Shown here: positions 15,791 to 58,099 of the stretch, piece after piece
Layout of the letters: the number at the start of each line of letters is the position of its first letter
How positions within the stretch are numbered: position 1 is the first letter of the stretch
Assembly (NCBI GenBank): GCA_964402035.1
Contig: CAYOAM010000001.1
Coordinates: 179,558-243,557 of the forward strand
Direction: 5' to 3'
Source of the DNA: an uncultured Candidatus Saccharibacteria bacterium
GTDB taxonomy: Bacteria > Patescibacteriota > Minisyncoccia > Phycocordibacterales > UBA918
DNA: 64,000 bases
Position numbers and translations under genes: made by a program
The notes under the pieces: model-generated
What the model saw: only the letters and a program-made list of their open reading frames with translations
Told to the model about the DNA's origin: nothing
Database searches by the model: none

Positions 15791-17022
15791 TGTCTACACC
15801 CGTCTCGTTCAGCGTGCAAAAAAAACTCAAAAATACACTAGGACGTGTAGGCACTATTCACACGCCACATGGTGATATTGAAACACCGGCTTTTGTCGTT
15901 GTGGGTACCAAGGCTACTGTGAAGTCGGTGAAGACTGACGATCTTGTGGAATACATAGGTAATCAATCGGTACTCGCCAACACCTATCATCTCTATTTGC
16001 AGCCGGGTCATGAGCTCGTGAAGGAAGCAGGTGGTCTGCATACCTTTATGAATTGGAAAGGACCACTTTGGACGGACTCTGGCGGATTTCAAGTGTTTTC
16101 TCTCGGAGCCGCGTTTGGCAAAGGTGTCAGCAAATTTCAAGCTGCTGAAGTCGTGACTGAGAGCGATCAGCGACCTACCGTGTATAGTCAAGAAAACGCA
16201 ATGGAGCACGGAAAACTTTGTGTAATTGATGAGGAGGGAGTGACCTTCACCTCACATATCGATGGGTCACTTCATCGCTTCACGGCAGAACGTTCAATAG
16301 AAATCCAACATGCACTCGGTGCCGACCTTATCTTTGTTTTTGATGAATGTACGTCTCCAAGTGCCGAGTATGACTATCAAAAAGAGGCACTGGAGCGTAC
16401 GATGCGGTGGAGCAAGCGCTCAATACTTGCGCACAAGCGCAACTATGATGCACTTAAAAAGCAGGGACTATACGGTATCGTCCAAGGGGGACGCTATACA
16501 GATTTGCGACAACAAAGCGCAACAGAACTTTCAAAAATGGATTTTGATGGCTATGGCATCGGGGGATCCTTTTCAAAAGAAGATCTTGGTGAGTCACTGC
16601 GAGTCGTCAATGAGATTTTGCCCGAAGAAAAACCACGGCATCTTTTGGGTATTGGAGAGCCTGAAGATATGTTTGCGGGAGTAGAGCAGGGATGCGATAC
16701 GTTTGATTGTGTGTTGCCAACACGTTTGGGGAGAAATGGTACGCTCTATACGAGCGGTGGCAAGATCGCGATCACAAACGCAGCGTACCAGCGAGACTTT
16801 GGACCCATAGATGCAACATGCGGCTGTATGGTGTGCAAAAATTATTCTCGTGCATACCTTGCGCATTTGTTTAAATCACATGAAATGGTCGGCTCTCATT
16901 TGGGATCACTCCACAACATTTATTTCATCACCACCTTAGTGCGCAATATCCGCAATGCAATACTAGAAGATCGGTACGCCGTGTTCAAAGATACCTTTTT
17001 TGCGAGGTATAGAGTGAAATAA
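15790..17022 (+). CDS. tgt: Queuine tRNA-ribosyltransferase (tRNA-guanine transglycosylase)
   Basis: HTPHGDIETPAFVVVGT, GIGEPED, LPTRLGRNG and Zn-site C..CGC.VC..YSRAYLAHL motifs. 410 aa. Confidence 0.9.
   Translation: MSTPVSFSVQKKLKNTLGRVGTIHTPHGDIETPAFVVVGTKATVKSVKTDDLVEYIGNQSVLANTYHLYLQPGHELVKEAGGLHTFMNWKGPLWTDSGGFQVFSLGAAFGKGVSKFQAAEVVTESDQRPTVYSQENAMEHGKLCVIDEEGVTFTSHIDGSLHRFTAERSIEIQHALGADLIFVFDECTSPSAEYDYQKEALERTMRWSKRSILAHKRNYDALKKQGLYGIVQGGRYTDLRQQSATELSKMDFDGYGIGGSFSKEDLGESLRVVNEILPEEKPRHLLGIGEPEDMFAGVEQGCDTFDCVLPTRLGRNGTLYTSGGKIAITNAAYQRDFGPIDATCGCMVCKNYSRAYLAHLFKSHEMVGSHLGSLHNIYFITTLVRNIRNAILEDRYAVFKDTFFARYRVK
16995..17022. repeat. 28-bp direct repeat copy 1 (cttttttgcgaggtatagagtgaaataa) at the tgt 3' end; left boundary of the Rhs island
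   Basis: An identical 28-mer recurs at 31592-31619. Confidence 0.8.
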
Positions 17023-17039
17023 GTAATACTGTTTTTACT

Positions 17040-17230
17040 GGTGGACGCCAGAATGCCCCGATGCTTGCATCGGGGATGAATGCCGCCCCGATTCCGCGCC
17101 GCTCTAAGCGGCATGCGGATCGGAAGCGCGCCCGGTGGGCGCACACATCCAGCTAAACACCACGGTAGTTTTCCGCTAATACCACGTCAGCTCTGCTGCG
17201 GGGATCGACGGAAAACTTATTTTTACTTAG
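17040..17230 (+). other. GC-rich structured non-coding element (several perfect hairpins) between tgt and the rhs gene; function unknown
   Basis: Local GC is well above the window background. Hairpins ccccgatgc-ttg-catcgggg, gccgct-cta-agcggc and gcgccc-ggt-gggcgc. The overlapping ORFs (16920-17144 minus, 17080-17298 plus) look spurious. Confidence 0.3.
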
Positions 17231-17294
17231 CAGTGGCACAACTTTCTTTACTTCATATAAATAGTATATATACTGATACTATTACCCTCGACAT

Positions 17295-20200
17295 ATGAAT
17301 GGTAGTAGACAATGGTGTGTATCTATCGGACAGAGTTTTAATTCAGTGTATAGAAAAACCGTGAGCATCCTGCTCGCGGTTTTTTTGTTACTCGAACCGC
17401 TCACCCCACTCTTTGCGGCAGAAGAGGTGCCACAAACAACCGACGCTCCCGCAACCACTAGTGCTCCTGTTGATACAACGCCCGTCATCACAGTACCAAG
17501 AGGTACAGAACCACCACCAGAAACCAATACTTCACAGACAGAAGACGGCGTGGAATTTAGTGTTGATGGAAAAACACCAGAGATAAAACCTCCACCAAAA
17601 GTGGAACAACCATCCGAAGATACGAAAAAGCTCGAAGAGGTAGAGCCGGAAACAGAGTCTCTCATGGGGATGGGTGGAGCAACTCAAGGTAGTGATCGTG
17701 GTCAAGTACGCCTTAGCTCAAAGATCAATGAACAGGACGGCGCATTTACGTACGACTACCCCCTTATGGTGCCTCCAGGAAGAAATGGGAGAGAACCCAG
17801 CTTAGTTCTTTCATACAATAGCAGAGGGGGAGGCGATGATGATATCTTTGGATACGGCTGGAGTATCAACATCCCTTTTATCGAGCGGGTCAACAAGGTT
17901 GGCAGCGAACAGATATTCACCCAGAGTGTTTTTTATTCCTCCCTCGGAGGTGAACTCGTACAAATAGGAAGCACGACGCAGTATCGTCCCAAAGTAGAAA
18001 CAGGAGAATTTCTAAAATATGTCTTTGCAAATGACCTCTGGAAGATCACCGATAAAAGCGGTACAGTCTACACCTTTGGGTCCACCACCTCTTCGCGCGA
18101 GGATAATGCTGCAAGTTCAACTCAGATTGCGAAATGGATGCTCGACGAGGTACGTGATACGAATGACAACTATGTAAAGTACACGTACTACAAGGCAGAC
18201 AATCGCGCGTATCCTGCGACAATCGTGTATACAGGCAGTGGGGCGACAGATGGCCCATTTTCTATTTCTTTTGTGCGTAGTACGACTACCAGCAATTCTC
18301 CCCGGTACGAAAGCGGTTTTGCCGCTACAACCACGTACCGTATTTCAGAAATTAACACTGCGGTAAGTGGCAGTTGGGTGAGAAAATATGCGCTCGCGTA
18401 TGGGGTAGGGGACAACAGTGTGCGCACACTTCTTTCAGGTATCACTGAGAGTGCACGCACCGAAGGTAGTACAGCATCAACTACCATGCCGGCAACTACG
18501 TTTACATACGAAAACACGATGAGTCAGACATGGACCGCTTCTTCATGGGCGCTTCCAGAGCCATTTACACAAAATGGCATCGACATGGGTACGCGCGATG
18601 TGGATATAAACGGTGACGGCTTTCCTGACATCATTCGTTTTTATAGAGATGCGACAGGGACTACGATCAAACGAGTGTATCTTAACAACAAGGTTGACGG
18701 CTGGACCTTGCAGAGTTCATGGGACTGGACCTACTTCACCGTACCATTTTCAGAATATTATGCAGTGGGTGACAGCAATGCGCGGAATGACAATGGTGTA
18801 CGTTTTGCGGATGTGAATGGAGACGCCTTAACTGACGTGCTCATTGGTTATGATGGAAATGGCTCGAGTGACACACAAAAAATCTATATCAACTATGGCG
18901 CCGGATGGTCGTACGATTCTTCATGGGTACTGCCTGTGTACTTCACTCGTTACTATAGCTCGCGAGTGTGGGACAACGGTGTGCGCATCGCAGATATAAA
19001 TGGTGACGGTCTTCCCGATTTAGTTTCTGCACAGTGGAATGCGTCAAGTACGCTCTCAACAGTTTTTTTGAATACCGGGAGTGGTTGGAGCACGACCACT
19101 TCATGGGTTATGCCGCGTGCATTTACTGGAGCATATGATGGTGTCCACCAAGGCAAAGACCTTGGTACACAACTAGTCGATGTGAACGGAGATGGACTTA
19201 CTGACGTGGTGCATGGGCTCAAGAGTACAATATTTGGTAACTCAAAAAATACGTATCTCAATACCGGAAGTGGTTGGGCAACAAGTACGCTATGGGACCT
19301 CCCAGACTATCTCATCTGGGCAGACGAAGCGGTGTCCGATATAGGATATCGATTTGAGGACGTCAATGGCGATGGACTTGTAGATCTTTCTATCAATAAC
19401 ACATTCGGGGGTTCGATTCCGGATGATGATATCTATATTAATACGGGTGCTGGTTGGACCAATAGTATCGGTAATTTTCCACCCTACCAGTTTGTCACAA
19501 GTACAGGAGATACAGGGGCACGCTTTATGGATGTGAATGCCGACCGTTTACCAGACGAAGTGTACGGCAACACGTCAAGTTCGACAGGGCCCGTAAGTTC
19601 CGAAGAGACCTATTTGAATCGTCGTGAAGTCGGTGACCTTCTTATCAATGTCACCGAACCGAAAGGCGGGACACTTGCCATTACCTACCAAAGCTCACAT
19701 GAGTACAGGAGTGCTGGGAGCTCGACAAATCCCTCTCTCCCATTTCCGATCACCACTGTAGCCACTACGACAAAAGATGCTGGATTCGGCACCACCGAGA
19801 CACAAGCTTATCTCTATGAAGGTGGTGACTACTGGTTTGACGCCACTCTATTTCGTGATCGTAAGTTTGCTGGATTTAGTACCATGACAAAAACTGGTCC
19901 AACTCAGAAAGAGAGAATCTATTTTCACCAAGGGAATGAGACGAATGTCACATCTGGAGAATACGCCGATGACAGTACAAAAATTGGTTTCCCATACCGC
20001 AGTGAAGTGGCCGACCTTGCTAATCGTCCCTATAAAGTCTCAACAAGTGAGTGGGTGACAAGTGACCTTGGAAGTAGCGCTTCATTTGTGAAGGAGACAC
20101 AGACGATCGATCTTGCATACGATGGAGACAGTGACTACAAAGCGCGGGCGGTGACGTATGTATACGATGACACAAACGGTCTTCTCACTACCAAAACCGA

Positions 20201-23200
20201 ATGGGGTGAAGTGACACCTACTACAACAAACTCACAGGTGGTGAGTACTTCTTCTGCTTCTATCGACCTTGAGAGTGGAAGTAGCCAACTCTTAGGTATC
20301 ACTGATGCCGCACAGTCAACACTCGATATCTTGGGAAGTATGACTATTGAGGCGTGGGTGCGCCCCGAGAGCCAACCGAGTGTTGGTGGTATTAGCGTTA
20401 TCGCCTCAAAGTGGAGTGCAAGTGCTGACCAATCCTATGCTCTGTATTATGAAAATGATGCAGGAACAAAAAAGCTTGTCTTTCGTATGGATGACACAAC
20501 AACGAACCCATCAAAGATATGCTCGCTCTCGACTACCTTGAGTGACGCAACATGGTATCACGTGGCTGTCGCATATGACGCAGCAAATGCAAGTAGCACA
20601 CTCTATGTAAACGGTAGCAGTATTGGATATTGTACAGGTCTCTATACGAGCATACTCAATTCTACGACAGATTTCCGAGTAGGGGCGTGGCAGAATACTG
20701 CAACACATTTCTTTGATGGGCTTATCGACGAACTACGTGTCTGGAGCGGAGTTCGCACACAAGCACAGATCCAAGCATCGAAAGACGCAGAGCTTGCGGG
20801 AAACGAAAGTGGCCTCCAGGCGTATTGGCGCTTGAATAACTCTTCGCTCGATACCACAACAAACGACAATGATCTTACCCTCTATGGTGGGCCAGTCTAC
20901 AGTACTTCAACACCACTTGCGTCTGTGTACACCACAGCAGCGTCACGCTTTACCTTCACTGACGCGGGGGTCGATAAACGCACAACACAGTACACCTATG
21001 CCTCAAATACTGCGGCATACGTCACACTTCTTCAGAAAGAGACTCTGCTCGATAGGGCTTCAAGTACGATACGTGAAAACAGATTCTACTACGACACTCA
21101 GGCACTCGGCACGGTGACTGACGGAAATATGACGAAAGCAGAACGCCTCGTATCTGGTTCGTCTACATACATTGATGAAGAGTGGACGTACAACAGCTAC
21201 GGGCTTGTATCACAGAGCAAAGACCCACGCGATAAAGCAACGACCTATGTCTATGACTCATACAACCTCTATCCGGCGACGACTACCAACCCTGTCTCTC
21301 ACGTACTCCTTAAATCCTACGACTATTCAAGTGGTAAGGTTGCGACGACAACCGATCCAAACAGTCGTGTGTTCGTTACTGTATACGATGCATTTGATCG
21401 ACCTATTGAGGAGCAAATTCCTGATCCTGTATCAGGTTCGCCTGTCACAAAAGCAACATATAGTTATATCGACACAGCAGGGAGTAACCGTATAGCGACA
21501 ACACAAAATCTCAATAATAGTACATCGACAGAATCGTACGACTACTTCGACGGCTTTGGACGCAAGATCCAGTCGCGTGTAGAAAGTGAGGCATCAAACA
21601 CTTTTGCAGTTCGTGACTTTTATTACAACAGCAACGGACTCTTGGATCGTGAGTCGCTCCCATATTTTAACAACGGTTCCAGTCGCACAAGTTCCACAAC
21701 CGATGCAGAGCTGTATAGCATCTACACGTACGACCCTCTCGGCCGTATTGCCACCACGACGACTGCCGTAGGTACAACAGCAACTGTCTTTGACGACTGG
21801 ACGGAACGTGTCGTTGACGCGCTTGGCAACCCGAAAGGATTTGCGTATGACGCGTACGGAAGGCTCGCAACTACAACTGAATACAATGCCTCGACGACCT
21901 ACGCCACAGCCTACCTCTGGGACATGACCGATAAGCTTGCAACTATTACCGATGCCTTGGGCAACATCCGTGCGATCACGTACGACAAACTGGGGAGGAG
22001 GCTCACACTTCAGGATCTCCATGCTTCGGCGGACACCACATTTGGTACTTCAAGTTTTGCATACGATGCATCTGGAAATCTAGGAACGACCACTGATCCC
22101 AAGGGGCAAACGGTGGTACGTACGTACGATGACGTAAACCGCATCCTCACCGAAAACTACACAGGACTTGCGGGGACTGAGATCTCGTATACGTACGACA
22201 CCTGCACTAACGGCAAAGGTAAGCTGTGCCAGGCTATACGTGCAAGTTCTGCAACGACGACCTATGCGTACACACCACCGGGACTTCTGGATATCGCTAC
22301 CACGACCGTCGGTACGTCAACGTACACCGCAAATTACGACTACGATAGACAAGGCAACCAAACGCAGCTCACGTACCCAGACGCTTCGGTGGCAAGTTAT
22401 ACGTACAACACGGGAGGGCAACTCGAAAAGGTGCAGTACAAAGAGAGTGGGGGATCCTACTCTGATGTCGTGAGCGATTTCAACTATGGTCCCCACGGCA
22501 TGATCACCTACGAGCTCTACGGCAATGGTGTCTCGACAACAAAAGTCTACGACGAAGATCAGCTCTATAGACTTAAAACCATTATTACGGTCACCGCTAC
22601 AGGTACCGTGGGGTACGGAGGCGGGGGTGATGAGCTTCGCGAACTAGAAACCTCACTCACTCTTGGTACAGACGGCACACTTCTCTTTGCGGTAGAGGAA
22701 GAAATAGGTGCCATACCTGAAGAGGAGGCGATACTCGAAGAAGAAACTGCTACTCAAGAAGAGGTCCCAGATATAACACCACCACTTGATACGGAAGATG
22801 TGGGGGAGACTCTCGAAGAAGAGAGTCCTATAGGTACAAGTACAGACGACGGTGCAGTGGCAGCAACCTCTTCCACGCCAGAAACTGCGTTTTCTTCAAC
22901 TACAGAAGAAGTCGCTTCAAGCACACCTGAGGACACGTTCCTTGAGAGTACGAGTACCATTGATATGCTTCTCGTCGGGACGACCACAGCAACCACGACT
23001 GACCTTGCAACTTCCACGACACCAATACTCACCGGTATTATGGCACTTATCGAAGGGAAGACATATGAAGAGATTGCCCGTATAAAATCAGAAGAGATTG
23101 CAAAGATTGATATGCGCGGTCTCTATACAAAAGGAGATCTTGATATCGAGATACTCGATGTGGCACAGATAGATGGTGGCATACAAGTCTTTGCGCGCGC

Positions 23201-25586
23201 ATGGGAGAGTGGAGTACCTCTTGGTTTTGGGACGGAAGGTACGGTCGAGATCGAACGGTTTAGAATCTTTAATCCGCCCATTCTTGTGCCGGACAAAGAG
23301 GGGCTCGTGGTACGCACTTCAGTAAATCTTGACGGGGAAACAAAAGTACACACGTACAGAGAAGATCCTTTGGGAGCAGTACGTACGGTGATACAAGATA
23401 GTATAGAACGTGTAGGAAAACGCGGGACTCTTGTTGAAGTTTCCACAGTTGGCAACACCACCTCTATCTTCTATCCTGCTTCTGGTGCCACTTCGCCAGT
23501 TGACGGTCTTGCACGTCACTACCAGGCAACAAGTGACTGGAATACTGCACGTGACGCCACCGACGGTACTGCGGCTTCAGCAACGACTGGGGACGATCTT
23601 GCTGCAGCCTCACGCAAAGACTCTTCTGACCTCTATGGCATCTATCGTGGCTTTTTCCTTTTTGACACGGCGCCGATTACATCCGGTAACGAGGTCACAG
23701 CAGCAACACTTTCTCTCTATACCAACGCTGTTTCAAATGCTGACAATGACGGTGACGACTTTATCTCCATTGTTTCTACATCCACTCCCGCTTCAGATGC
23801 AAACATCACCACGGCTGACTACGACCAATGTGGCGCAACTGAAGCACATGATACGAGTGAGCGCAAAGACCTTACCGGTATGAGTGTGAGCGTATACAAA
23901 GACTGGTCGATGAATGCTACAGGTCGTAGCAGTATCAATGTCACCGGTATCTCAAAGTTCTGTGCGCGTGAAGGTCACGATCTTCTCGATACACCATACG
24001 CAGGGGGTCCCAATACCTCAAACTACTTCAACATCCTCTGGGCAGATACTGCAGGCACAACCCAAGATCCAACATTGACTGTGACCCACACCCCACTCCC
24101 ATCTCCAACAGGAGGCAACACCATCCAATACCGCTCATACACCTATGACGCAGTGGGAAACATCACCCAGATTGTAGAAAGTGGAAACACACTCGCCCGC
24201 GCCACCACCACATACACATACGACCCCCTCTATCGCCTCGTGAGTGCTTCGACCACTCAGGCAAGTAGCACCCCATACTCCGAAACATACGCATACAACG
24301 CCATCGGTAACCTCACCTATAAGTCAAACGTAGGTACGTACTCATATGGAGGGAGTAGTGGCTCTTCATACGCTAACCCACACGCTCCCACAAGCATCAA
24401 TGGCGTCACCTACGCATATGACAAGAATGGCAACCTAGCCTCCACCACCGACTCCAAGACCTATACCTGGGACTATGCCAATAGGTTAAGTAGCACTGTC
24501 ATAGGCAGTCTCACCACCACATACCAGTACAACCACGAAGGTCAACGAGTATACAAAACCAATGCCTCAGGTACGATAGCCTCACCCTATACCTTCTACG
24601 AAACCGACTCAGGAACAACCACCAAGCACATCTATACCCCTAGTGGTGATCTTCTTAGTACCATCGACAAGAGGGGTAGCACCACCACACGCTCCTATGC
24701 CCACACAGATCACTTGGGATCAACGGTCGCTATCACAAGCAATACCGGAGCAGTGTCACAAGTACTTGAATACTATCCGTATGGAGGAACACGTATAGAC
24801 CAGAAGTATGGCGCTACGAACCAACGCAATAGATACATAGGACAAGACAGTGACATAGAGAACTCGCTTATCTACCTCAATGCACGGTATTATGATGGAC
24901 AGAGAGGGCAGTTCTTGAGTCAGGATCCGGTGTTTAATGAGGTCGGACTCACGAAAGACGGGAAAGCAGTGATGAGGAATCCTCAAGCGATGAACAGCTA
25001 CTCGTATGCACAGAATAATCCTGTGGTGTATAAAGATCCGAGTGGGAGGATAGCGTTTGTACCACTTGTTCTTGGAATTGTGATGGCTTATGGTTATGTA
25101 CAAACGGCTGTTGACGTGTATCACTTTACCAATGTTTTAAGATACCCAGAAGCGTTCACAACCTCTGAAATGAATGAAGCTGGAGTCAAAGTGATACACG
25201 ACGCAGCAGGAATAGGTGCAGGACGACTTCTGGGGCCGGATGTTGGCTCAGGGATTGACACATTTGGAGCGATATATGACACAGTTAACTACGGAGTGAA
25301 AAAAATTGATGATTTATTCAAAAAAGTAAAAAATCTTTCAGTAGACGGAGGTCAAAATATACACCAAACTACACCAGCAATAGGAAACATTCCAAAACCA
25401 CAAGATAATAAAACATATATTAGTGCACCACCATCTACTACTCAACCAATACCAACGGCACAAAACTCTTCTAACTACAATTCAGCTACGAGTTATCTAA
25501 ACTCAGCACAGCGAGCACTAAATCGAGGTGATTTAAAATCAGCCGAAAGATTTATTGGCAAAGCAAGGAGATCTTTAGGTAATTAA
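17295..25586 (+). CDS. rhs: Giant Rhs/YD-repeat polymorphic toxin (Tc-toxin BC-like): signal peptide, SpvB domain, FG-GAP/integrin-like repeats, LamG/ConA-like lectin domain, YD repeats, RHS core and variable C-terminal toxin domain
   Basis: SpvB-like block (GAFTYDYPLMVPPGRNGREPSLVLSYNSRGG..GYGWSINIPFIERV). Six DxNGDGxxD propeller repeats (DVDINGDGFPDII, ADVNGDALTDVL, ADINGDGLPDLV, VDVNGDGLTDVV, EDVNGDGLVDLS, MDVNADRLPDEV). LamG block (IEAWVRPESQ...LIDELRVWSGVRTQAQIQ). YD repeats (YTYDAVGNITQI and others). Core end HTDHLGSTVAITS..YYPYGGTR...NARYYDGQRGQFLSQDPVF, then a unique 215-aa C-terminal domain. Confidence 0.9.
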   Translation: MNGSRQWCVSIGQSFNSVYRKTVSILLAVFLLLEPLTPLFAAEEVPQTTDAPATTSAPVDTTPVITVPRGTEPPPETNTSQTEDGVEFSVDGKTPEIKPPPKVEQPSEDTKKLEEVEPETESLMGMGGATQGSDRGQVRLSSKINEQDGAFTYDYPLMVPPGRNGREPSLVLSYNSRGGGDDDIFGYGWSINIPFIERVNKVGSEQIFTQSVFYSSLGGELVQIGSTTQYRPKVETGEFLKYVFANDLWKITDKSGTVYTFGSTTSSREDNAASSTQIAKWMLDEVRDTNDNYVKYTYYKADNRAYPATIVYTGSGATDGPFSISFVRSTTTSNSPRYESGFAATTTYRISEINTAVSGSWVRKYALAYGVGDNSVRTLLSGITESARTEGSTASTTMPATTFTYENTMSQTWTASSWALPEPFTQNGIDMGTRDVDINGDGFPDIIRFYRDATGTTIKRVYLNNKVDGWTLQSSWDWTYFTVPFSEYYAVGDSNARNDNGVRFADVNGDALTDVLIGYDGNGSSDTQKIYINYGAGWSYDSSWVLPVYFTRYYSSRVWDNGVRIADINGDGLPDLVSAQWNASSTLSTVFLNTGSGWSTTTSWVMPRAFTGAYDGVHQGKDLGTQLVDVNGDGLTDVVHGLKSTIFGNSKNTYLNTGSGWATSTLWDLPDYLIWADEAVSDIGYRFEDVNGDGLVDLSINNTFGGSIPDDDIYINTGAGWTNSIGNFPPYQFVTSTGDTGARFMDVNADRLPDEVYGNTSSSTGPVSSEETYLNRREVGDLLINVTEPKGGTLAITYQSSHEYRSAGSSTNPSLPFPITTVATTTKDAGFGTTETQAYLYEGGDYWFDATLFRDRKFAGFSTMTKTGPTQKERIYFHQGNETNVTSGEYADDSTKIGFPYRSEVADLANRPYKVSTSEWVTSDLGSSASFVKETQTIDLAYDGDSDYKARAVTYVYDDTNGLLTTKTEWGEVTPTTTNSQVVSTSSASIDLESGSSQLLGITDAAQSTLDILGSMTIEAWVRPESQPSVGGISVIASKWSASADQSYALYYENDAGTKKLVFRMDDTTTNPSKICSLSTTLSDATWYHVAVAYDAANASSTLYVNGSSIGYCTGLYTSILNSTTDFRVGAWQNTATHFFDGLIDELRVWSGVRTQAQIQASKDAELAGNESGLQAYWRLNNSSLDTTTNDNDLTLYGGPVYSTSTPLASVYTTAASRFTFTDAGVDKRTTQYTYASNTAAYVTLLQKETLLDRASSTIRENRFYYDTQALGTVTDGNMTKAERLVSGSSTYIDEEWTYNSYGLVSQSKDPRDKATTYVYDSYNLYPATTTNPVSHVLLKSYDYSSGKVATTTDPNSRVFVTVYDAFDRPIEEQIPDPVSGSPVTKATYSYIDTAGSNRIATTQNLNNSTSTESYDYFDGFGRKIQSRVESEASNTFAVRDFYYNSNGLLDRESLPYFNNGSSRTSSTTDAELYSIYTYDPLGRIATTTTAVGTTATVFDDWTERVVDALGNPKGFAYDAYGRLATTTEYNASTTYATAYLWDMTDKLATITDALGNIRAITYDKLGRRLTLQDLHASADTTFGTSSFAYDASGNLGTTTDPKGQTVVRTYDDVNRILTENYTGLAGTEISYTYDTCTNGKGKLCQAIRASSATTTYAYTPPGLLDIATTTVGTSTYTANYDYDRQGNQTQLTYPDASVASYTYNTGGQLEKVQYKESGGSYSDVVSDFNYGPHGMITYELYGNGVSTTKVYDEDQLYRLKTIITVTATGTVGYGGGGDELRELETSLTLGTDGTLLFAVEEEIGAIPEEEAILEEETATQEEVPDITPPLDTEDVGETLEEESPIGTSTDDGAVAATSSTPETAFSSTTEEVASSTPEDTFLESTSTIDMLLVGTTTATTTDLATSTTPILTGIMALIEGKTYEEIARIKSEEIAKIDMRGLYTKGDLDIEILDVAQIDGGIQVFARAWESGVPLGFGTEGTVEIERFRIFNPPILVPDKEGLVVRTSVNLDGETKVHTYREDPLGAVRTVIQDSIERVGKRGTLVEVSTVGNTTSIFYPASGATSPVDGLARHYQATSDWNTARDATDGTAASATTGDDLAAASRKDSSDLYGIYRGFFLFDTAPITSGNEVTAATLSLYTNAVSNADNDGDDFISIVSTSTPASDANITTADYDQCGATEAHDTSERKDLTGMSVSVYKDWSMNATGRSSINVTGISKFCAREGHDLLDTPYAGGPNTSNYFNILWADTAGTTQDPTLTVTHTPLPSPTGGNTIQYRSYTYDAVGNITQIVESGNTLARATTTYTYDPLYRLVSASTTQASSTPYSETYAYNAIGNLTYKSNVGTYSYGGSSGSSYANPHAPTSINGVTYAYDKNGNLASTTDSKTYTWDYANRLSSTVIGSLTTTYQYNHEGQRVYKTNASGTIASPYTFYETDSGTTTKHIYTPSGDLLSTIDKRGSTTTRSYAHTDHLGSTVAITSNTGAVSQVLEYYPYGGTRIDQKYGATNQRNRYIGQDSDIENSLIYLNARYYDGQRGQFLSQDPVFNEVGLTKDGKAVMRNPQAMNSYSYAQNNPVVYKDPSGRIAFVPLVLGIVMAYGYVQTAVDVYHFTNVLRYPEAFTTSEMNEAGVKVIHDAAGIGAGRLLGPDVGSGIDTFGAIYDTVNYGVKKIDDLFKKVKNLSVDGGQNIHQTTPAIGNIPKPQDNKTYISAPPSTTQPIPTAQNSSNYNSATSYLNSAQRALNRGDLKSAERFIGKARRSLGN

Positions 25587-25591
25587 GTAGT

Positions 25592-25852
25592 ATGAAATTA
25601 CAAGATTTAATTATTAATAATTATGAAATACTCCTTCTCGTCGCAGGATTGTTACTCACATTTCTTGGAATTATGCCTATAATCTCAAGAAATTACTATG
25701 AAAACAATTTAAGATCAGATTGGAGTAGAAACCTCTGGCTATTTTCAGAGAAAGACAGATATATATATAATAGATATGTTAGACCACTTTATCCATTGTT
25801 GGCTGGTATTACTATGATTGGTGTAGCAATCTATAAGTTTTTATATCCTTAA
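25592..25852 (+). CDS. Candidate immunity protein for the Rhs C-terminal toxin (86 aa, 2 TM helices)
   Basis: Starts 6 nt after the rhs stop. AT-rich, two hydrophobic helices (LLLVAGLLLTFLGIMPII and LLAGITMIGVAIYKFLY). Confidence 0.45.
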   Translation: MKLQDLIINNYEILLLVAGLLLTFLGIMPIISRNYYENNLRSDWSRNLWLFSEKDRYIYNRYVRPLYPLLAGITMIGVAIYKFLYP

Positions 25853-25857
25853 TACGT

Positions 25858-27021
25858 GTGACCATCTCCTCCAAAACATACACCTGGGACTATGCCAACA
25901 GACTCAGTAGCACCGTCATAGGATCCTTAAGTACCTCATACCTCTATAACCACGAAGGTCAACGAGTATACAAAACCAATGCTTCAGGTACGATAGCTTC
26001 ACCGTATACCTTCTATGAGACAGACTCAAGTACCACCACCAAGCACATCTATACCCCCAGTGGTGATCTTCTTAGTACCATCGACAAGAGGGGTAGCACC
26101 ACCACACGCTCCTATGCCCACACAGATCACTTGGGATCAACGGTCGCTATCACAAGCAATACCGGAGCAGTGTCACAAGTACTTGAATACTATCCGTATG
26201 GAGGAACACGTATAGACCAGAAGTATGGCGCTACGAACCAACGCAATAGATACATAGGACAAGACAGTGACATAGAGAACTCGCTTATCTACCTCAATGC
26301 ACGGTATTATGATGGACAGAGAGGGCAGTTCCTTTCACAGGATCCGGTGTTTCTTGGGGATGCAGAAGCTCAGGACTTGAAATATCCTCAGAATCTAAAT
26401 AGTTATTCATACTGGACGAACAATCCTATTATTAATAAAGATCCAAGCGGAAAAGCGACATACGTTGATGTTAACGGGAAAAGAATTATAGGTTCAGACA
26501 CAAATGACCCGAATACCTACTATGAGCAAGATGACATCAATATGCTCAACACAAATGCCAACCAAATGGAAAACAACAAGCTCAATGCTGTGGAGTTCTA
26601 TAATAAAGTTAACTATGGTGGTGAATGGGACTACAAAGAAGGAGGGAGGGAGTATTATTTCTTTGAAGGGGAACTGGTCGATAAGGAAACCTATGGGAAT
26701 CGTCATTATGGCTATACGGGCAGCGCAGGAGCTTTCCCGGGCGTTGTATTGAAGGCGGGTGCAGGGGCCGCTTCAGTACGACATAATAAGGGGTTTGTTA
26801 AAAATTCTTCAATGTATCTTGATGAGCAAAAAGATACCAGAAACATTCAGATGGGTATTGATGCATATCAAAGTAAAAATAGCAAAAACACAGTCAGCCT
26901 TTCTACAAAACTAAAGAATGCTAATACATCGCTCAATTATGCCCTTGAACAAGCCAAAAAAGGGAACACATATGCTGCCACTCGAGCTATAAAGAGAGCT
27001 TTCAATCAATTGAACAATTGA
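25858..27021 (+). CDS. Orphan rhs-CT cassette 2: duplicated Rhs core 3' end (about 160 aa) fused to a distinct C-terminal toxin domain; GTG start only
   Basis: Nt 26041-26333 are more than 99% identical to 24623-24915 of the main rhs gene, with divergence starting exactly after QDPVF. No ATG start is present. Confidence 0.7.
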   Translation: MTISSKTYTWDYANRLSSTVIGSLSTSYLYNHEGQRVYKTNASGTIASPYTFYETDSSTTTKHIYTPSGDLLSTIDKRGSTTTRSYAHTDHLGSTVAITSNTGAVSQVLEYYPYGGTRIDQKYGATNQRNRYIGQDSDIENSLIYLNARYYDGQRGQFLSQDPVFLGDAEAQDLKYPQNLNSYSYWTNNPIINKDPSGKATYVDVNGKRIIGSDTNDPNTYYEQDDINMLNTNANQMENNKLNAVEFYNKVNYGGEWDYKEGGREYYFFEGELVDKETYGNRHYGYTGSAGAFPGVVLKAGAGAASVRHNKGFVKNSSMYLDEQKDTRNIQMGIDAYQSKNSKNTVSLSTKLKNANTSLNYALEQAKKGNTYAATRAIKRAFNQLNN

Positions 27022-27028
27022 ATTTAAG

Positions 27029-27700
27029 ATGAAAATTATACATAAAATTGCAAGCCGTATCCGACATCATTACGTTTTGTCAGCATTGTTGGTTAATTTG
27101 ATTCTCAGTATTCTACTGACTTGTATTTTACTTTTCGGTATACGTCTAACTCATGTGCTTTACCAAGCAGCCCTGTTAAATTTTGTTTTCTTGGAGTGCT
27201 TTATAAATTTTGTATTTATCACTTGGTATTTGTTTGGACGTGTATCAAAAATACTAAAATCAGGGCTTCTTTCGCTCATTATCCAATCCCTTAAATATGC
27301 TCTCTTATTTTTTATTGGGATTTGGAGTTTCTTTTTTATTTTTCTTTCACTCGTAGATTTTCATCGCCTCCTTAAGGATGGATATGACGGAAGTTACCTG
27401 CCCGTCCAAACTGTTACTATTGATGAAAATCAGAATATAGTCGTCTATCGAACAAACGGAGGTGCCACAACAGATTTTGGCGTTGAGATTCGAAGAGAGA
27501 AATACTTATCCCTTGGATTCAAATGGGTTAAAACACTTAGAGAGTATTATCATGTGAGCGATATTAAACTAAGTACTTTAAATACTTCTCAGGTCATGAT
27601 AGAAGAGGTAAAAGGTACCAGCCATGTGTATACCTCAAGCGAGGAAAAATGGTACGGCCCTCTCCCCGTGAGAGGTGAGGTAATTGATATTTTTCGTTGA
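27029..27700 (+). CDS. Candidate immunity protein for orphan CT2 (223 aa, multi-TM N-terminal half)
   Basis: Starts 8 nt after the CT2 stop. 5-6 TM helices in the first 110 aa, then a soluble domain. Confidence 0.45.
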   Translation: MKIIHKIASRIRHHYVLSALLVNLILSILLTCILLFGIRLTHVLYQAALLNFVFLECFINFVFITWYLFGRVSKILKSGLLSLIIQSLKYALLFFIGIWSFFFIFLSLVDFHRLLKDGYDGSYLPVQTVTIDENQNIVVYRTNGGATTDFGVEIRREKYLSLGFKWVKTLREYYHVSDIKLSTLNTSQVMIEEVKGTSHVYTSSEEKWYGPLPVRGEVIDIFR

Positions 27701-27756: not shown

Positions 27757-28073
27757 TTTTAAAGAGACACAAGCGAGTGTTTCTTAGCAATAATATTTTT
27801 TGTAAAATCTGCTCAAATAGCCTAGCAAGCTAACCCATCGACAAGAAAGGCAGCACTACCACGAGATCCTATGCCCACACAGATCACTTAGGAAGTACGG
27901 TCGCTATCACCTCAAACACTGGAGCAGTCTCTCAAATACTTGAATACTACCCATATGGAGGTACCCGTATAGACCAGAAGTATGGAGCTACAAACCAACG
28001 CAATAGGTACGTTGGGCAGGACTATGACCAAGAAACGAATCTCAATTACCTGCAACAGAGATATCAAAATTCA

Positions 28074-28754
28074 GTGAATGGGCAGTTTATTTCTCAAGAC
28101 CCGGTGTTCCTAGACATAGGACTTAATACCAACGAGGGGAAGGTAGTGATGAGGAATCCGCAAGCAATGAACTCGTATAGTTATGCACAAAATAGTCCTT
28201 TGGTATTGAAAGATCCGAGTGGAAGGAGCGCTGCAGCCATAGGAGGCTTAGAAGGCCTAGCTGCGTTATCCGCACTTGTTGCTCCGGAAGTTGTTGTTCC
28301 GGTAGTGGCAGCAGTTGCAATTGTTACGACGGGGATTGTATTATATGAAAACGGAAAGCAGATTTGGATGGGACCAGTCCAAACTATCAATTTACCCCCA
28401 CCACCGATAGATCCTCTTGACCCGGGAGGTCCACCAAATTTCAAAGGACCAAAGTGGAAACAAGCAATTATTTGGACGACTATCGGAATTGGTGGTTTAG
28501 AGGGGGTACTTGAAAACTATCCAAAGGGAGGCAATTCGAATTCTACTAAACAATCAAACACTACAAATTCAACCAACTCAACTGCCAAATCTCCAACTTA
28601 TAATCAACCTTCTCCATACCAAAATAATCATCCCACTAATAATGACGCGGCATACAGTTTAATAAAGCAAGCTGAAAAAGCCATTGCTAATAAGGATTAT
28701 GGTGCTGCAAAAAAATACCTAAAGAACGCATCGAAAGCCTTAAATGGGAAGTAA
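28074..28754 (+). CDS. Orphan rhs-CT cassette 3 (start-less): an in-frame Rhs-core remnant begins at 27837 immediately after a TAA stop; third distinct C-terminal toxin domain
   Basis: Frame is open from 27837 (IDKKGSTTTRSYAHTDHLGSTVAITSNTGAVSQILEYYPYGGTRIDQ...QDPVFLD), about 80% nt identity to the main core. Only a GTG at 28074 is available as a start. The C-terminal domain is Gly/Pro/Asn-rich with a hydrophobic helix. Confidence 0.55.
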   Translation: MNGQFISQDPVFLDIGLNTNEGKVVMRNPQAMNSYSYAQNSPLVLKDPSGRSAAAIGGLEGLAALSALVAPEVVVPVVAAVAIVTTGIVLYENGKQIWMGPVQTINLPPPPIDPLDPGGPPNFKGPKWKQAIIWTTIGIGGLEGVLENYPKGGNSNSTKQSNTTNSTNSTAKSPTYNQPSPYQNNHPTNNDAAYSLIKQAEKAIANKDYGAAKKYLKNASKALNGK

Positions 28755-29405: not shown

Positions 29406-29768
29406 CTAGTTAATTTTAGTTTTAATTTGAAAAGTAATTTTGTCCATCTCTACATTTGATTGAGAATCGTGACTAGCCCTTAATCTTATTGGTACTGAAC
29501 CAGTGAGGATCACCTTGCCGTGGTCATAGCTGATGCTTTCTACAAAATCTATAAGGAACTTCCTTTTTGCTTTAAGGTCGATACTCCTTTCAAATCTTGC
29601 TCGTGTAGTCTCACAAAATATCCTTAAGTTCGCATCGATTATATCCTCATCGTGCAGGGTGGGTATTTGTTTGAGAAGTTCCTTTAAATCAAGGAAATGG
29701 ATCAGAAATGGGGACAGGGACAATACTTTAAACAAAGGAAATGGGGACAGGGACAATACTTTAAACAA
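29406..29768 (-). CDS. Hypothetical ORF whose N-terminal 30 codons are encoded by the REP repeats; probably a disrupted gene remnant
   Basis: The N-terminus MFKVLSLSPFPLFKVLSLSPF is the translation of the tandem REP units. No internal ATG except near the C-terminus. Confidence 0.2.
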   Translation of the reverse strand: MFKVLSLSPFPLFKVLSLSPFLIHFLDLKELLKQIPTLHDEDIIDANLRIFCETTRARFERSIDLKAKRKFLIDFVESISYDHGKVILTGSVPIRLRASHDSQSNVEMDKITFQIKTKIN

Positions 29769-29770
29769 AA
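29691..29770. repeat. Left REP-like array: 2.3 tandem copies of ggaaatggggacagggacaatactttaaacaaa (33-nt period)
   Basis: Seen directly. Inverted relative to the array at 30480-30554. Confidence 0.8.
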
Positions 29771-29788
29771 GTATTGCATAATATTGTC

Positions 29789-30457
29789 ATGCCTCGCCAA
29801 GCACGTGTTGCGGTGAAAGATGTGGTGTACCATGTCATCAATCGTTCCAATGGTCGAGCGAGGATATTCGAGAAAGACAGTGACTATCAGCATTTTGAGT
29901 CACCGCTCACCGAAGCCCGGGAACTAACAGATATGCGTATCCTTGCATACTGTATTATGCCCAACCATTGGCATCTTATACTCCATCCACGTTCAGACAC
30001 CAACCTTGCTGAATTTATGAGTTGGCTCACCACGACTCATGTCCGCCAGTATCGCACTCGCACGCAAAGTATTGGCTATGGTCACCTCTATCAAGATCGA
30101 TACAAATCATTTCCCGTTGAGACCAATGACTATTGCGCAACACTGATCCGCTACATTGAACAGAACCCATTGCGCGCTCGACTCATTCAAAGAGCCGAAG
30201 ACTGGCAATGGTCAAGTCTCTGGAGACGAGAGCAGGGAAGCGATGCACAGAAGAGGCTGCTTGCGGAGTTACCCACTGACCTTCCTGCAAACTATCTGCA
30301 GTCTGTGAATGAGATACTTAAACCTAAAATAATAGAAAATATTCGTTACTCGGTGAACAAAGGAAAACCATATGGCTCAGAAAGGTGGGTGAGTACCATG
30401 GTGGGTGACTTTGCATTAAGGTATACGCTTCGTGGTCCAGGTCGTCCGAAGAAATAG
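29789..30457 (+). CDS. REP-associated tyrosine transposase (RAYT, IS200/Y1 HUH family)
   Basis: HUH motif HWHLILH and catalytic Tyr region (YIEQNPLRARL..EDWQWSS). Aligns by eye with the E. coli RAYT YafM pattern. Maximal ORF from TTG 29774. Confidence 0.85.
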   Translation: MPRQARVAVKDVVYHVINRSNGRARIFEKDSDYQHFESPLTEARELTDMRILAYCIMPNHWHLILHPRSDTNLAEFMSWLTTTHVRQYRTRTQSIGYGHLYQDRYKSFPVETNDYCATLIRYIEQNPLRARLIQRAEDWQWSSLWRREQGSDAQKRLLAELPTDLPANYLQSVNEILKPKIIENIRYSVNKGKPYGSERWVSTMVGDFALRYTLRGPGRPKK

Positions 30458-31010
30458 AAAATATTACACAATGAAAAGTGGAAAAATATTGTCCCTGTCC
30501 CCAATTTCCTGGAAAAATATTGTCCCTGTCCCCAATTTCCTCCCCAATTTCCTGAATCCAGTAGGTTCACTGATTGATTCCGTTACGGCTGCAAAAGATA
30601 AACTGGTGGAATTCCAAAACAGCAGTGACCCAGAGCGAGATGCCATGCTTGCTGATGGAATTATCACTTTTGCAGAGATGGTCGTGTTGCGAAATCGTGG
30701 GAATGTGGGGGATGACGTTATTAGAGAGACTCTTAGCGGAAGTGGGGACATTCGAAGAGTACACAGATTGTCATCAACTGATGCACTCACAACAGGTGAA
30801 CAATTCCTCGGTCCTGGTTATAAACAACTAGGTAAGCCAAATTCAGGTGTGTTTAGAAGCGCTGATGGACTGAGGCAATTTAAGATTGATGGGGGATCAC
30901 TTATCCATCCACAAGGAGCACACGTCAGTTTTGAAGCGTTTAATGTAAGTCAGTCTACTAACCCGTATGCAGAACCGTATGTAAACAATCACGTCTTTTT
31001 AACAAATTAA
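30432..31010 (+). CDS. Putative orphan toxin C-terminal domain (5' part overlaps the RAYT 3' end and REP array; the real module probably starts near 30556)
   Basis: Location in the cassette array with a small gene immediately 3'. No recognisable Rhs core upstream, consistent with displacement by the REPIN-RAYT insertion. Domain family not recognised. Confidence 0.3.
   Translation: MVQVVRRNRKYYTMKSGKILSLSPISWKNIVPVPNFLPNFLNPVGSLIDSVTAAKDKLVEFQNSSDPERDAMLADGIITFAEMVVLRNRGNVGDDVIRETLSGSGDIRRVHRLSSTDALTTGEQFLGPGYKQLGKPNSGVFRSADGLRQFKIDGGSLIHPQGAHVSFEAFNVSQSTNPYAEPYVNNHVFLTN
30480..30554. repeat. Right REP-like array: 2.4 tandem copies of ggaaaaatattgtccctgtccccaatttcc (reverse complement of the left units)
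   Basis: Seen directly. Together with 29691-29770 it forms inverted REP doublets around the RAYT gene (REPIN-like). Confidence 0.8.
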
Positions 31011-31013
31011 AAT

Positions 31014-31331
31014 ATGCAAGAAATTTACTTTAACAGAATAGGCATCCTGCGAAAAAGTATACATCCAAAAGAAATTGGTTGGTATATTACGATTCAAGAT
31101 GATACTCAAATCAGTGGAGGGTGCAAAGTTTTTACTTCAAATAATATTGATTTTGAGTCTGATGCAAGTGACGCAGCAAAAATTGTCTTTGATCATTGGT
31201 ATGAAACAGAACTTCACGTATCTAAAGGCATTGAAGCATGGGGTCGAGAGATTGAGTGGACTAACAATTATATCACCATTGAGTGGGCAGATGATATGAA
31301 ATCATGGAAGTGGAAGAAAATGGATAAATAG
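31014..31331 (+). CDS. Candidate immunity protein (105 aa, soluble, Trp-rich)
   Basis: Starts 4 nt after the preceding stop. No TM helices. Confidence 0.35.
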   Translation: MQEIYFNRIGILRKSIHPKEIGWYITIQDDTQISGGCKVFTSNNIDFESDASDAAKIVFDHWYETELHVSKGIEAWGREIEWTNNYITIEWADDMKSWKWKKMDK

Positions 31332-31359: not shown

Positions 31360-31533
31360 ATGCCCAAAACTTCAGTAGCCCCATACTCCAAAACATACAC
31401 CTGGGACTATGCAAATAGACTCACAGGTACCACCATAGGCTCTCTCAGTACCACCTATCAATACAACCACGAAGGTCAGCGTGTATACAAAACCAATGCC
31501 TCAGGCACCACGACGATATACATATTAGTATAA
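31360..31533 (+). pseudogene. Truncated Rhs core remnant (57 codons, MPKTSVAPYSKTYTWDYANRLTGTTIGSLSTTYQYNHEGQRVYKTNASG...)
   Basis: Homologous to main-gene region 24440-24570 (SKTYTWDYANRLSSTVIGSLTTTYQYNHEGQRVYKTNASG). Ends in a stop after 8 unrelated codons. Confidence 0.5.
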
Positions 31534-31591
31534 ATTCTATATGAAACGGTTTCTGGAATGAATCGGAAAATAGTGACTGTCCTCAATTTCA

Positions 31592-31619
31592 CTTTTTTGC
31601 GAGGTATAGAGTGAAATAA
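31592..31619. repeat. 28-bp direct repeat copy 2 (identical to 16995-17022); right boundary of the Rhs island
   Basis: Seen directly. Perfect match to the tgt 3' end. Confidence 0.8.
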
Positions 31620-31652
31620 AAAATACCGATTTTGCCAGTGTGGCAGAATCGG
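31612..31652 (-). terminator. Rho-independent terminator for the minus-strand gene 31679-32023
   Basis: Hairpin ccgattttgcca / tggcagaatcgg followed on the minus strand by a TATTTTTTATTT tract. Confidence 0.5.
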
Positions 31653-31678
31653 CATTTGAGCGATACACCGTCATGTGG

Positions 31679-32023
31679 TCATGGAATCAGTCTTTCGGCA
31701 CATACCTTTGCGGTCGCGCCGCTATATTTGTCGGCGATCGGAAGTCCAACCTTAAGCCATTTCTCCACCTCGGCTGGGCGTTGCCAGTTTGATACTGTTT
31801 TGAGGCTCTGCAACACAATCTCGACATCGGGTCGTTTCTTGAATTGAACAACGCAGATGGCGCCTAAGGCGTCAGCGACTGCTGCGTTCGCTGCTGTCTG
31901 TGCCGAGTCTCTGGCTGTTCCGCTAGTAACCCAGCCGCCCCACCAGAAGCCGACGATAGTTGCAGCAATTACCCCTGCGACCGCACCCTTTACTGCATAC
32001 CAAAACTTGTCAGGAATCTTCAT
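31679..32023 (-). CDS. Small membrane-anchored hypothetical protein (114 aa)
   Basis: TM helix (VAGVIAATIVGFWWGGWV). Terminator downstream. Confidence 0.5.
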   Translation of the reverse strand: MKIPDKFWYAVKGAVAGVIAATIVGFWWGGWVTSGTARDSAQTAANAAVADALGAICVVQFKKRPDVEIVLQSLKTVSNWQRPAEVEKWLKVGLPIADKYSGATAKVCAERLIP

Positions 32024-32110
32024 GATGTATTCCTTTCATTCGTTCGTAGAGAAGGGGATCTGCTCTGCCGTATCTATAAGAACAGTAGCATACAATCGGA
32101 TTCTCAGATA

Positions 32111-32145
32111 CAAAATAAAAATAGCCGATACTCGAAGGTATCGGC
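32111..32145 (-). terminator. Rho-independent terminator on the minus strand (gccgatac-tcgaag-gtatcggc plus TATTTTTATTTTG)
   Basis: Seen directly. Terminates a minus-strand transcript coming from the GC-rich region 32146-32395. Confidence 0.6.
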
Positions 32146-32395: not shown

Positions 32396-32456
32396 AGCAT
32401 ATACCATAGAGTTAGAAAGTCAATAAAATAAAATATTTGCTATACTCTGTGAGCAT

Positions 32457-57591: not shown

Positions 57592-57592
57592 T

Positions 57593-58075: not shown

Positions 58076-58099
58076 TATCAATATTAATAACGGAGCTAT

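Follow-up and report, generated by a model that had tools for sequence, protein, structure and literature searches.

Introduction

Polymorphic toxins of the TcdB/TcaC type carry a signal peptide, an SpvB domain, an integrin-like β-propeller, RHS repeats and a variable C-terminal toxin, are linked to immunity genes, and have no experimentally established delivery route (PMC3482391). Here we describe a locus of this kind in a 64-kb stretch of metagenomic DNA (positions 179,558 to 243,557 of contig CAYOAM010000001.1; hereafter the window), in which one open reading frame (ORF) on the plus strand, 17295-25586, encodes a protein of 2763 amino acids (aa) with all of these parts. The tip and its putative immunity protein each represent a new family, the shell contains extra inserts, namely LamG and a CBM96-like module that is also encoded in phage tail gene clusters, and the phylum is missing from the list compiled in 2012 (PMC3482391). 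We interpret the whole as an Rhs polymorphic-toxin locus of the 'TcdB/TcaC type' that a Paceibacteria-like bacterium of the candidate phyla radiation (CPR) acquired horizontally, with functions that would extend from Sec export to tip switching, and we give this reading a probability of about 0.85.

Among proteins of solved structure, the nearest counterparts are the BC cocoons of toxin complex (Tc) toxins, such as TcdB2-TccC3 of Photorhabdus (PDB 4O9X/6H6E) and YenB-YenC2 of Yersinia. These share with the 2763-aa protein an SpvB domain, a propeller gate, a midN segment, a YD shell, the residues of an aspartyl autoprotease and a PxxxxDxxG(R) cleavage motif. In contrast to them, the protein described here is one polypeptide with a Sec signal and a short, 178-aa tip, and is accompanied by putative immunity genes and orphan cassettes. 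A midC segment was not detected, only one of four constriction residues is invariant, and no TcA is encoded in the window or in related loci.

Tse5 of Pseudomonas aeruginosa likewise holds a small, helical, hydrophobic tip in an Rhs shell and is paired with an immunity protein of two transmembrane (TM) segments, Tsi5 (PMC9637101, PMC10684867); the Tse5 tip is pore-forming (PMC9637101). The two tips have no sequence similarity, and Tse5 is a PAAR-like protein delivered by a type VI secretion system (T6SS), whereas the protein described here is predicted to be exported by Sec and has a TcB-like front.

Orphan cassettes have their own precedent. The rhs loci of Escherichia coli and Salmonella and the wapA locus of Bacillus subtilis are arrays with promoterless orphan cassettes. 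WapA is itself a Sec-exported Rhs/YD toxin of a single-membrane bacterium, with cell-wall-binding repeats and without SpvB or a propeller. The layout seen here is similar to that of the rhs and wapA arrays: a main gene, its immunity gene, and then cassettes of core fragment, tip and immunity gene that share a recombinogenic core repeat. Unlike those arrays, this one forms a discrete island, with a duplicated 3' end of tgt and an internal repetitive extragenic palindrome (REP)-associated tyrosine transposase (RAYT).

A single frame encodes a predicted Tc-like shell

The ORF begins with ATG and runs as one unbroken frame. At a GC content of ~47% and a stop frequency of ~0.05 per codon, we estimate the chance of 2763 open codons at ~e^-146, and minus-strand ORFs in the same interval are at most 142 aa long. 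An earlier, sequence-only reading of this DNA had named the ORF and its domains. The ORF is exactly the one it gave, and all of the domains were recovered with curated Pfam and NCBIfam models; the domain scan that it had proposed returned SpvB, FG-GAP, TcdB_toxin_midN, Laminin_G_3, RHS_repeat and the Rhs core. Homologues of the protein (695 matches at E ≤ 1e-10) are colinear with it across up to 84% of its length and have the same order of domains.

Positions of all features are collected in Table 1. The N-terminus has a basic n-region and a hydrophobic stretch (aa 21-43) leading to LFA/AEE, the slash marking the probable cut, and this pattern is kept in the family consensus (...LLxPxxxVFAxE; A41 at least 90% conserved). 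After a low-complexity spacer, the SpvB model matches aa 147-306, and SpvB and YenB chains of the PDB were also matched in this domain. The propeller scores 41 bits with FG-GAP_3 and 32 bits with FG-GAP, and its six DxNGDGxxD repeats lie at aa 437, 506, 567, 629, 689 and 746. When sub-sequences were scanned, TcdB_toxin_midN matched aa 790-875 (35.4 bits; cut-off 24.8). The Laminin_G_3 match that follows spans aa 1008-1160; the majority consensus has no LamG domain at this position, and other family members carry one at other positions. For the YD/RHS repeats, the scores were 49.4 bits with PF05593 (RHS_repeat) and 31.5 bits with TIGR01643, and Rhs and Tse5 chains of the PDB matched aa 1476-1662. 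BLAST gave no homologue of the disordered linker at aa 1786-1924.

With the single sequence, Rhs, Tse5, SpvB and YenB chains in the PDB were matched weakly. A profile built from 20 family members was far more telling. It matched TcdB2-TccC3 fusions best (E 2e-60, in three significant stretches), followed by TcdB1 (E 1e-34, covering the propeller and midN) and YenB (E 2e-32); in the propeller region, profile positions 314-811 aligned with TcdB2 328-791, and 315-811 with TcdB1 335-797. T6SS Rhs proteins (Tse15, RhsA), teneurin-like shells and integrin propellers ranked lower. From the ranking of TcdB2-TccC3, TcdB1 and YenB, we conclude that the front end is TcB-like and the back end TcC/Rhs-like, which agrees with the TcB-TcC fusion that had been proposed from the sequence.

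TcdB_toxin_midC (PF12255) had no match at E ≤ 1, either on the whole protein or on sub-sequences. Pfam and NCBIfam gave no match to T6SS features (an N-terminal PAAR or prePAAR domain or a VgrG-binding region), and the N-terminus consists of the signal peptide and spacer. A T6SS or type VII secretion system (T7SS) effector was rejected, as PAAR, VgrG, WXG and LXG are all lacking.

Rhs core, cleavage site and toxin tip

The Rhs core closes with what appears to be an intact aspartyl autoprotease. Residues R2531, D2544, P2576, D2581 and G2584 are invariant in 20 of 20 aligned family sequences, and the cleavage region reads NNPVVYKDPSGR/IAF (PVVYKDPSGR/IAF), with R2585 as the basic P-1 residue. 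In TcC proteins, the cleavage motif is PxxxxDxxG with a basic P-1 residue (PMC7861908). Based on the fit to this rule, the encapsulated tip comprises aa 2586-2763, a total of 178 residues, and the protein would cut itself after R2585 by means of D2544 and D2581. The sequence-only reading had let the core end at ...SQDPVF and had counted a unique 215-aa C-terminal domain from there. The core in fact continues to P2576-x4-D2581-x2-G2584-R2585, which shortens the toxin part accordingly, and the tip does have relatives, a rare Rhs-only family of ~90 clusters among 1.84 billion proteins.

In layout, the tip is a ~95-aa helical domain, a linker rich in Ser, Asn, Gln and Pro, and a helical-hairpin tail that resembles tetratricopeptide repeats (TPR) and has a basic end. 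Immediately past the cut site, the domain opens with a hydrophobic helix, and a Gly/Ala-rich helix comes next. No relative of the tip was found in Pfam, NCBIfam or PADLOC, and a tip profile searched against all PDB sequences gave one chance-level match (E 0.3) and no similarity to the C-terminal tip of Tse5 (Tse5-CT). A low-confidence AlphaFold2 (AF2) model, made from an alignment of eight sequences, shows three helices and a better-predicted tail hairpin.

A homologue search with the tip alone returned nothing, whereas a HMMER search with the tip profile found relatives. The tip of homologue P0063 is 39% identical over its full length, and the first ~95 residues are common to six other family members. 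Searched against 1.84 billion representative proteins, the profile found 90, of which 46 had E ≤ 1e-10, and these are the ends of 2000-2900-aa proteins or short, orphan-like ORFs. DPxG lies directly upstream of the tip domain in 32 of the 38 best new matches checked; the tip therefore represents an Rhs-specific family.

Only 5 nt separate the toxin gene from the gene for a predicted membrane protein of 86 aa. The ORF that follows the P0063 tip is also 86 aa long, and its product is 47% identical to that of 25592-25852 in a different genomic context. Small two-TM ORFs lie downstream of the tip family in all four loci examined, two of them encoding 63-74 aa. From this recurrent pairing, the 86-aa protein is probably the immunity protein for the tip, and by analogy with Tse5/Tsi5 the tip may attack membranes.

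A shell module shared with phage tail clusters

The second half of the YD shell is preceded by an inserted module of two domains, insA and insB, for which a structure model is confident (predicted local distance difference test, pLDDT, 89.4; predicted template modelling score, pTM, 0.90). Among 119 homologues, insA occurs in 29 and insB in 78; their positions vary, and some proteins have two copies. The module had no sequence match in Pfam or the PDB, and no match in cultured-phage GenBank records or PHROGs. The fold of insB matches solved CBM96 modules (a β-sandwich, CBM96/DNRLRE-like), and its score against NF033679 is 21.1 bits, under the cut-off of 34. Identity to the known CBM96/DNRLRE modules, such as those that bind chondroitin sulfate (PDB 8WAB) and alginate (7VBO), is only 10-16%. 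Unlike these, which belong to polysaccharide lyases, insB is preceded by the uncharacterised insA and sits in an Rhs shell and in a phage protein.

The whole module also exists as a standalone protein of ~360-450 aa, in more than 300 clusters, on contigs of 25-50 kb that are genomes of uncultured phages. On one such contig, its gene comes right after a collagen-like tail-fibre gene, near genes for an SU10 adaptor, an M23 peptidase and ERF; on another, capsid/portal genes stand on one side of it and large tail genes on the other. In IMG/VR, 76 contigs bear the module, and the median ORF length is 381 aa among 43 complete full-module matches. We infer that insA plus insB is a surface-recognition module that Rhs cocoons and phage tail gene clusters have traded with each other. 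It probably defines the target surface, and by analogy with its structural relatives the CBM96-like module may, together with LamG, bind glycans on neighbouring cells. Loci with the standalone module that were fetched for inspection are L085 (10001-11104), L086 (10001-11083) and L087-L162.

C-terminal tails and the constriction

Small tail modules, placed after a low-complexity linker, recur at the C-termini of toxin tips that are otherwise unrelated. Besides the main tip, the locus holds two orphan tips, and in all three a linker rich in Ser, Asn and Gln leads to similar TPR-like hairpins at the C-terminus (25480-25583, 26920-27018 and 28650-28751) with the pattern A..A...G(D/N)...A...(I/Y)..(K)A...L. 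Elsewhere, the toxin domain of the main tip is joined to at least three tails: an amphipathic helix plus KKK, LWVTPSGAVV... and QNGVTYVR.... Net charge over the last eight residues is +2 or more in 60% of 120 family members, compared to 5% of background windows.

In Tc toxins, the C-terminus of the cargo is the first part to pass out of the cocoon, by way of a negatively charged constriction (bioRxiv 10.1101/590430). We aligned the four TcdB2 constriction residues with the family. E102 corresponds to E220, which is invariant in 20 of 20 sequences; D34, N60 and D73 correspond to D148, N175 and S190, and all three vary. A role of the basic tail as the leading end on exit is speculative: the data are consistent with it and do not prove it.

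Orphan cassettes and their neighbours

Cassette 1 repeats the main gene's core over 0.5 kb (24444-24949 versus 25861-26366; 89-96% identical; TIGR03696 58.9 bits) and then carries a catalogued toxin domain, Ntox44 (PF15607; E 1.8e-11, 44.8 bits versus a cut-off of 24). The motifs of this family are DxK, GNxxxG and DxxxD (PMC3482391), legible here as WDYK, GNRHYG and DEQKD. Recombination between the two repeat copies would delete 1417 bp and set the Ntox44 tip on the main body. Among close homologues, the tips differ and the body is conserved.

Cassette 2 has a partial match to TIGR03696, and its core repeats are 74% (D1) and 79% (D4) identical. Its tip is rich in Ala, Gly and Val, has a TM segment at aa 59-93, and ends in the same tail. 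Further right, the RAYT also scores 70.1 bits with NF047646, under the cut-off of 80, and at either side of it lie two tandem repeats of 31-33 nt, in inverted orientation between the sides, with the core GGGGACAGGGACAATA. Four copies are present, versus 0.06 expected, and none lies elsewhere in the window. The RAYT has probably disrupted an orphan cassette. The two ORFs after it had no match in Pfam, NCBIfam or PADLOC and possibly represent a truncated tip and its immunity gene. In the last core fragment, 31386-31508 (D3) is 82% identical to a reference in cassette 1 (25869-25991), with which the copy in the main gene (24452-24574) shares 83% identity.

Upstream of the main gene, none of 200 shuffled sequences was as stable as the leader at 17040-17235. 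No further copy of 17040-17294 was found in the window or the fetched loci, and 17040-17235 has no Rfam family at gathering score. A sigma-70-like site at 17247-17274 is weak and no better than chance.

The locus lies in an island of a CPR genome

The order FKBP-tgt-uvrB-uvrA is retained in ~30 Paceibacteria-type loci, in which the gap between tgt and uvrB is ~0-2.6 kb and contains no Rhs gene. In the window, this gap measures 15.4 kb. The island within it, ~14.6 kb long, is bounded by the two copies of the tgt 3' end (D5: 17000-17043 versus 31597-31640, 84% identical), and GC content drops to 37-40% across the orphan region. Related Rhs genes elsewhere adjoin ligA/gatCA, rpsI or other genes. 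Given the tgt repeat, the empty tgt-uvrB sites, the differing contexts and the dip in GC, we conclude that the locus was inserted.

The contig that bears the ORF is 452,957 bp long, with housekeeping synteny on both sides of the locus. TGT is 66-69% identical to proteins of Paceibacterota and Kaiserbacteria metagenome-assembled genomes (MAGs) and of one MAG labelled 'Saccharibacteria' by its pipeline. In the best-matching loci (L002 and L003), UvrB is 71-73% and UvrA 73-80% identical, and for one relative the chromosome is complete, at 617 kb. Judged from these genes, the organism is a member of the CPR/Patescibacteria. The sequence-only reading had likewise suspected a reduced, CPR-like organism, and the identities of TGT, UvrB and UvrA to Paceibacterota, Kaiserbacteria and Adlerbacteria MAGs (66-80%), together with a gene order common among them, bear this out. 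It had also called such a weapon notable in a CPR genome; judged by the databases, it is no exception there, because proteins of this type turn up often in MAGs of Patescibacteria. Among the 695 homologues, the names Paceibacteria, Parcubacteria, Patescibacteria and Ryanbacteria recur many times. A handful belong to other phyla or to a 5.3-Mb contig, and so the type is frequent in the CPR yet not confined to it. A scan of GTDB genomes with the whole protein, based on exact 8-mer patterns that proved too strict, found nothing.

Other parts of the window drew our attention. Upstream of uvrB lie ~400 nt of GC-rich non-coding DNA (32040-32456), possibly an unrecognised RNA or a remnant; its sole Rfam match had an E value of 0.68, and no credible match was seen in the non-coding DNA of 31500-32500 as a whole. 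Predicted surface proteins with Big_13, cohesin-like, TSP3, WxL-interacting and LytR_C domains are encoded at 3527-5263, 8158-9819 and 34554-36686, and one of them lies between uvrB and uvrA, as in the relative L002. At 53860-60433, a heavy-metal P-type ATPase with an HMA domain is encoded near a protein of 1243 aa that has three multicopper-oxidase domains. The region resembles a cluster for copper handling, and an oxidase of this size is large for a CPR genome.

Table 1. Features of the Rhs locus and its borders, in window coordinates
Feature	Position	Strand	Remarks
Left direct repeat, ~48 nt	16996-17043	+	Last 27 nt of tgt (stop 17020-17022) plus 21 nt; left island border
GC-rich, hairpin-rich 196-nt leader before the Rhs gene	17040-17235	+	Fold -83.4 kcal/mol, z -3.26
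Sec-type signal peptide	17295-17417	+	aa 1-41, predicted
Pro/Thr/Glu-rich low-complexity spacer	17418-17732	+	aa 42-146, direct reading; no Pfam match
SpvB/TcB N-terminal shell domain	17733-18584	+	aa 147-430; PF03534 63 bits
Six-bladed FG-GAP integrin-like β-propeller	18585-19649	+	aa 431-785; counterpart of the gate of Tc-type cocoons
TcdB_toxin_midN-like shell segment	19650-20291	+	aa 786-999; PF12256 E 8.4e-9
LamG/ConA-like lectin-fold domain, shell insert	20292-20804	+	aa 1000-1170; PF13385 87.5 bits
YD/RHS-repeat shell, part 1	20805-22649	+	aa 1171-1785; DUF6443 27.8 bits, YD_repeat_2x, precomputed TEN_YD-shell
Acidic, Ser/Thr-rich disordered linker	22650-23066	+	aa 1786-1924, direct reading; leads into the inserted module
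Inserted two-domain module	23067-24119	+	insA aa 1925-2055, insB aa 2056-2275 (together ~350 aa)
YD/RHS-repeat shell, part 2	24120-24770	+	aa 2276-2492; PF05593 best at aa 2284-2321
Rhs-associated core with aspartyl autoprotease	24771-25049	+	TIGR03696 aa 2493-2584, 56.8 bits versus cut-off 32.5
C-terminal toxin tip	25050-25586	+	aa 2586-2763
Putative cognate immunity protein, 86 aa	25592-25852	+	Two TM helices (predicted); starts 5 nt past the toxin gene
Orphan cassette 1	25858-27021	+	199-aa Rhs core, DPSGK, Ntox44 tip and the same tail type
223-aa membrane protein	27029-27700	+	3-4 TM plus soluble C-terminal half; candidate immunity for cassette 1, by position and TM prediction
Orphan cassette 2	27835-28754	+	Degraded core remnant 27835-28123; ORF 28074-28754 with core end, DPSGR, hydrophobic tip
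Two small membrane proteins, 87 and 91 aa	28804-29387	+	Candidate immunity for cassette 2; no family match
RAYT, Y1 type	29705-30540	+	ORF 29774-30457; PF01797 70.6 bits
ORFs 30432-31010 (192 aa) and 31014-31331 (105 aa)	30432-31331	+	Flanked by the RAYT and the 57-aa core fragment
Truncated Rhs core fragment, 57 aa	31360-31533	+	Right array end; repeat D3
Right copy of the tgt 3'-end repeat	31593-31640	+	Right island border

Discussion

A mechanism that would accommodate these observations runs as follows. The 2763-aa protein would be exported by Sec and, by homology to TcdB2-TccC3, would form a closed YD-repeat cocoon, with SpvB and the six-bladed propeller gating one end and the Rhs core plugging the other. 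The aspartyl protease (D2544/D2581) would cut after DPSGR2585, as the conserved residues suggest, and leave the 178-aa tip inside. Once LamG and the CBM96-like module had bound the surface of a neighbouring cell, the tip might leave at the propeller end with its C-terminus ahead, as Tc cargo does, and with the help of its basic tail; this step is speculative, as is the opening of the gate without TcA. We put at about even odds the next step, in which the hydrophobic tip helices would enter the cytoplasmic membrane of the target and dissipate its potential. Sibling cells would be shielded by the 86-aa two-TM protein, to judge from the conserved gene pair, and the orphan cassettes of core plus tip could replace the tip by homologous recombination over the 0.5-kb repeat. 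No component of TcA, T6SS or T7SS takes part in this scheme.

Several observations weigh against the reading as a polymorphic-toxin locus or against parts of it. The tip has no detectable homology to characterised toxins, its AF2 model (pLDDT 51) is too poor for a fold search, and conserved Asp and Tyr residues in its first helix would also suit a soluble helical toxin or an enzyme. A role of the two-TM protein in immunity is suggested only by position and co-conservation, and similarity among the four such proteins is weak except in one pair. Next to cassette 1, the 223-aa protein has no similarity to the ORF (L084 7772-8353) that follows an Ntox44 tip of 49% identity (P0014); either Ntox44 immunity proteins are not one family, or 27029-27700 is not the immunity gene. 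Of the four residues at the TcdB2 constriction, the family keeps just one invariant, and no integrase marks the island.

What else might the locus be? Its origin in a metagenome assembly, with many repeats and a transposase alongside, could suggest an assembly chimera or a decaying pseudogene. The intact 8.3-kb frame, the full set of catalytic residues, the colinear homologues and a 453-kb contig with housekeeping synteny at both sides all speak against this, and we regard it as negligible. Another view takes the protein for the BC part of a true three-part Tc (ABC) toxin, which would dock on a TcA pentamer encoded elsewhere and inject eukaryotic cells. The closest solved relatives are indeed TcdB2-TccC3, TcdB1 and YenB, SpvB, midN and the propeller are all there, natural B-C fusions are known (PMC7861908), and the 64 kb analysed belong to a contig of 453 kb or more. 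Yet the next-largest ORF in the window encodes 1243 aa and is thus not of TcA size, the flanks of four other family loci have no TcA-like gene, TcdB_toxin_midC is undetected, and immunity-like genes together with orphan tips typify Rhs systems that act between bacteria. The 178-aa tip also falls under the range of 201-400 aa that holds 97.9% of the hypervariable regions (HVRs) of TcC proteins (PMC7861908). The 2763-aa protein, moreover, has an N-terminal signal peptide. Tc subunits are not known to have one, and a Tc (ABC) toxin in the strict sense is unlikely, with only a few chances in a hundred. Slightly better, though still very improbable, is a non-toxic, teneurin-like surface adhesin whose C-terminal hydrophobic helix serves as a membrane anchor. 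Lectin-type decorations, the hydrophobic helix at the start of the tip and the want of a recognisable toxin fold would fit; invariant protease residues and cleavage motif, polymorphic tips on a conserved body, an orphan with the catalogued toxin domain Ntox44, and a tip that co-varies with the small membrane protein downstream would not.

A more serious question is which cells are the target. Immunity genes and orphan cassettes point to antagonism of bacteria against bacteria, and orphan tips with immunity-like genes of their own are the signature of discrimination among kin or competitors, in which the repertoire of immunity genes counts. The target might instead be the host bacterium of the episymbiont, killed or permeabilised for nutrients, in which case immunity would guard only against self-harm on export. 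The organism belongs to the CPR, the glycan-binding-type and phage-tail-cluster modules of the shell suit recognition of a foreign surface, and a membrane-acting tip would work on any bacterium. Given the orphan tips, we consider an exclusive host target a tentative, lesser possibility, and the host and rival epibionts are not mutually exclusive targets.

As a toxin class, then, the TcdB/TcaC-type Rhs locus is already well known, and the value of this example lies in the organism and the add-ons, with no new principle. New here are the tip/immunity family and, neither of them met in the literature searched, the shell module in common with phage tail clusters and the basic tails seen across the family. 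Nor did this literature yield a paper that deals with Rhs toxins of the CPR; in one study, 'Rhs family' is merely listed among horizontally transferred genes (PMC10031880).

CPR/Patescibacteria have genomes of ~0.6-1 Mb and live attached to other cells, and their means of competing with one another or of harming hosts are largely obscure. At ~15 kb, the whole locus takes up 3.4% of the contig, a large investment for such an organism. It supplies a small tip and a two-TM partner as a candidate toxin/immunity pair, its confidently folded insert ties Rhs cocoons to phage tail gene clusters, and the family-wide basic C-terminus agrees with the C-terminus-first exit of the Tc type. One could go further, with low confidence, and suppose that the CPR use a Tc cocoon independent of TcA: a Sec-exported BC fusion, targeted to a neighbouring cell by insA plus insB, as a receptor-binding module traded with phage tail clusters, and by LamG, with a gate that opens on binding and an exit led by a lineage-specific basic tail that is retained while toxin domains are swapped. 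If true, such a cocoon would be a new contact-dependent delivery route for single-membrane bacteria that have neither T6SS nor T7SS.

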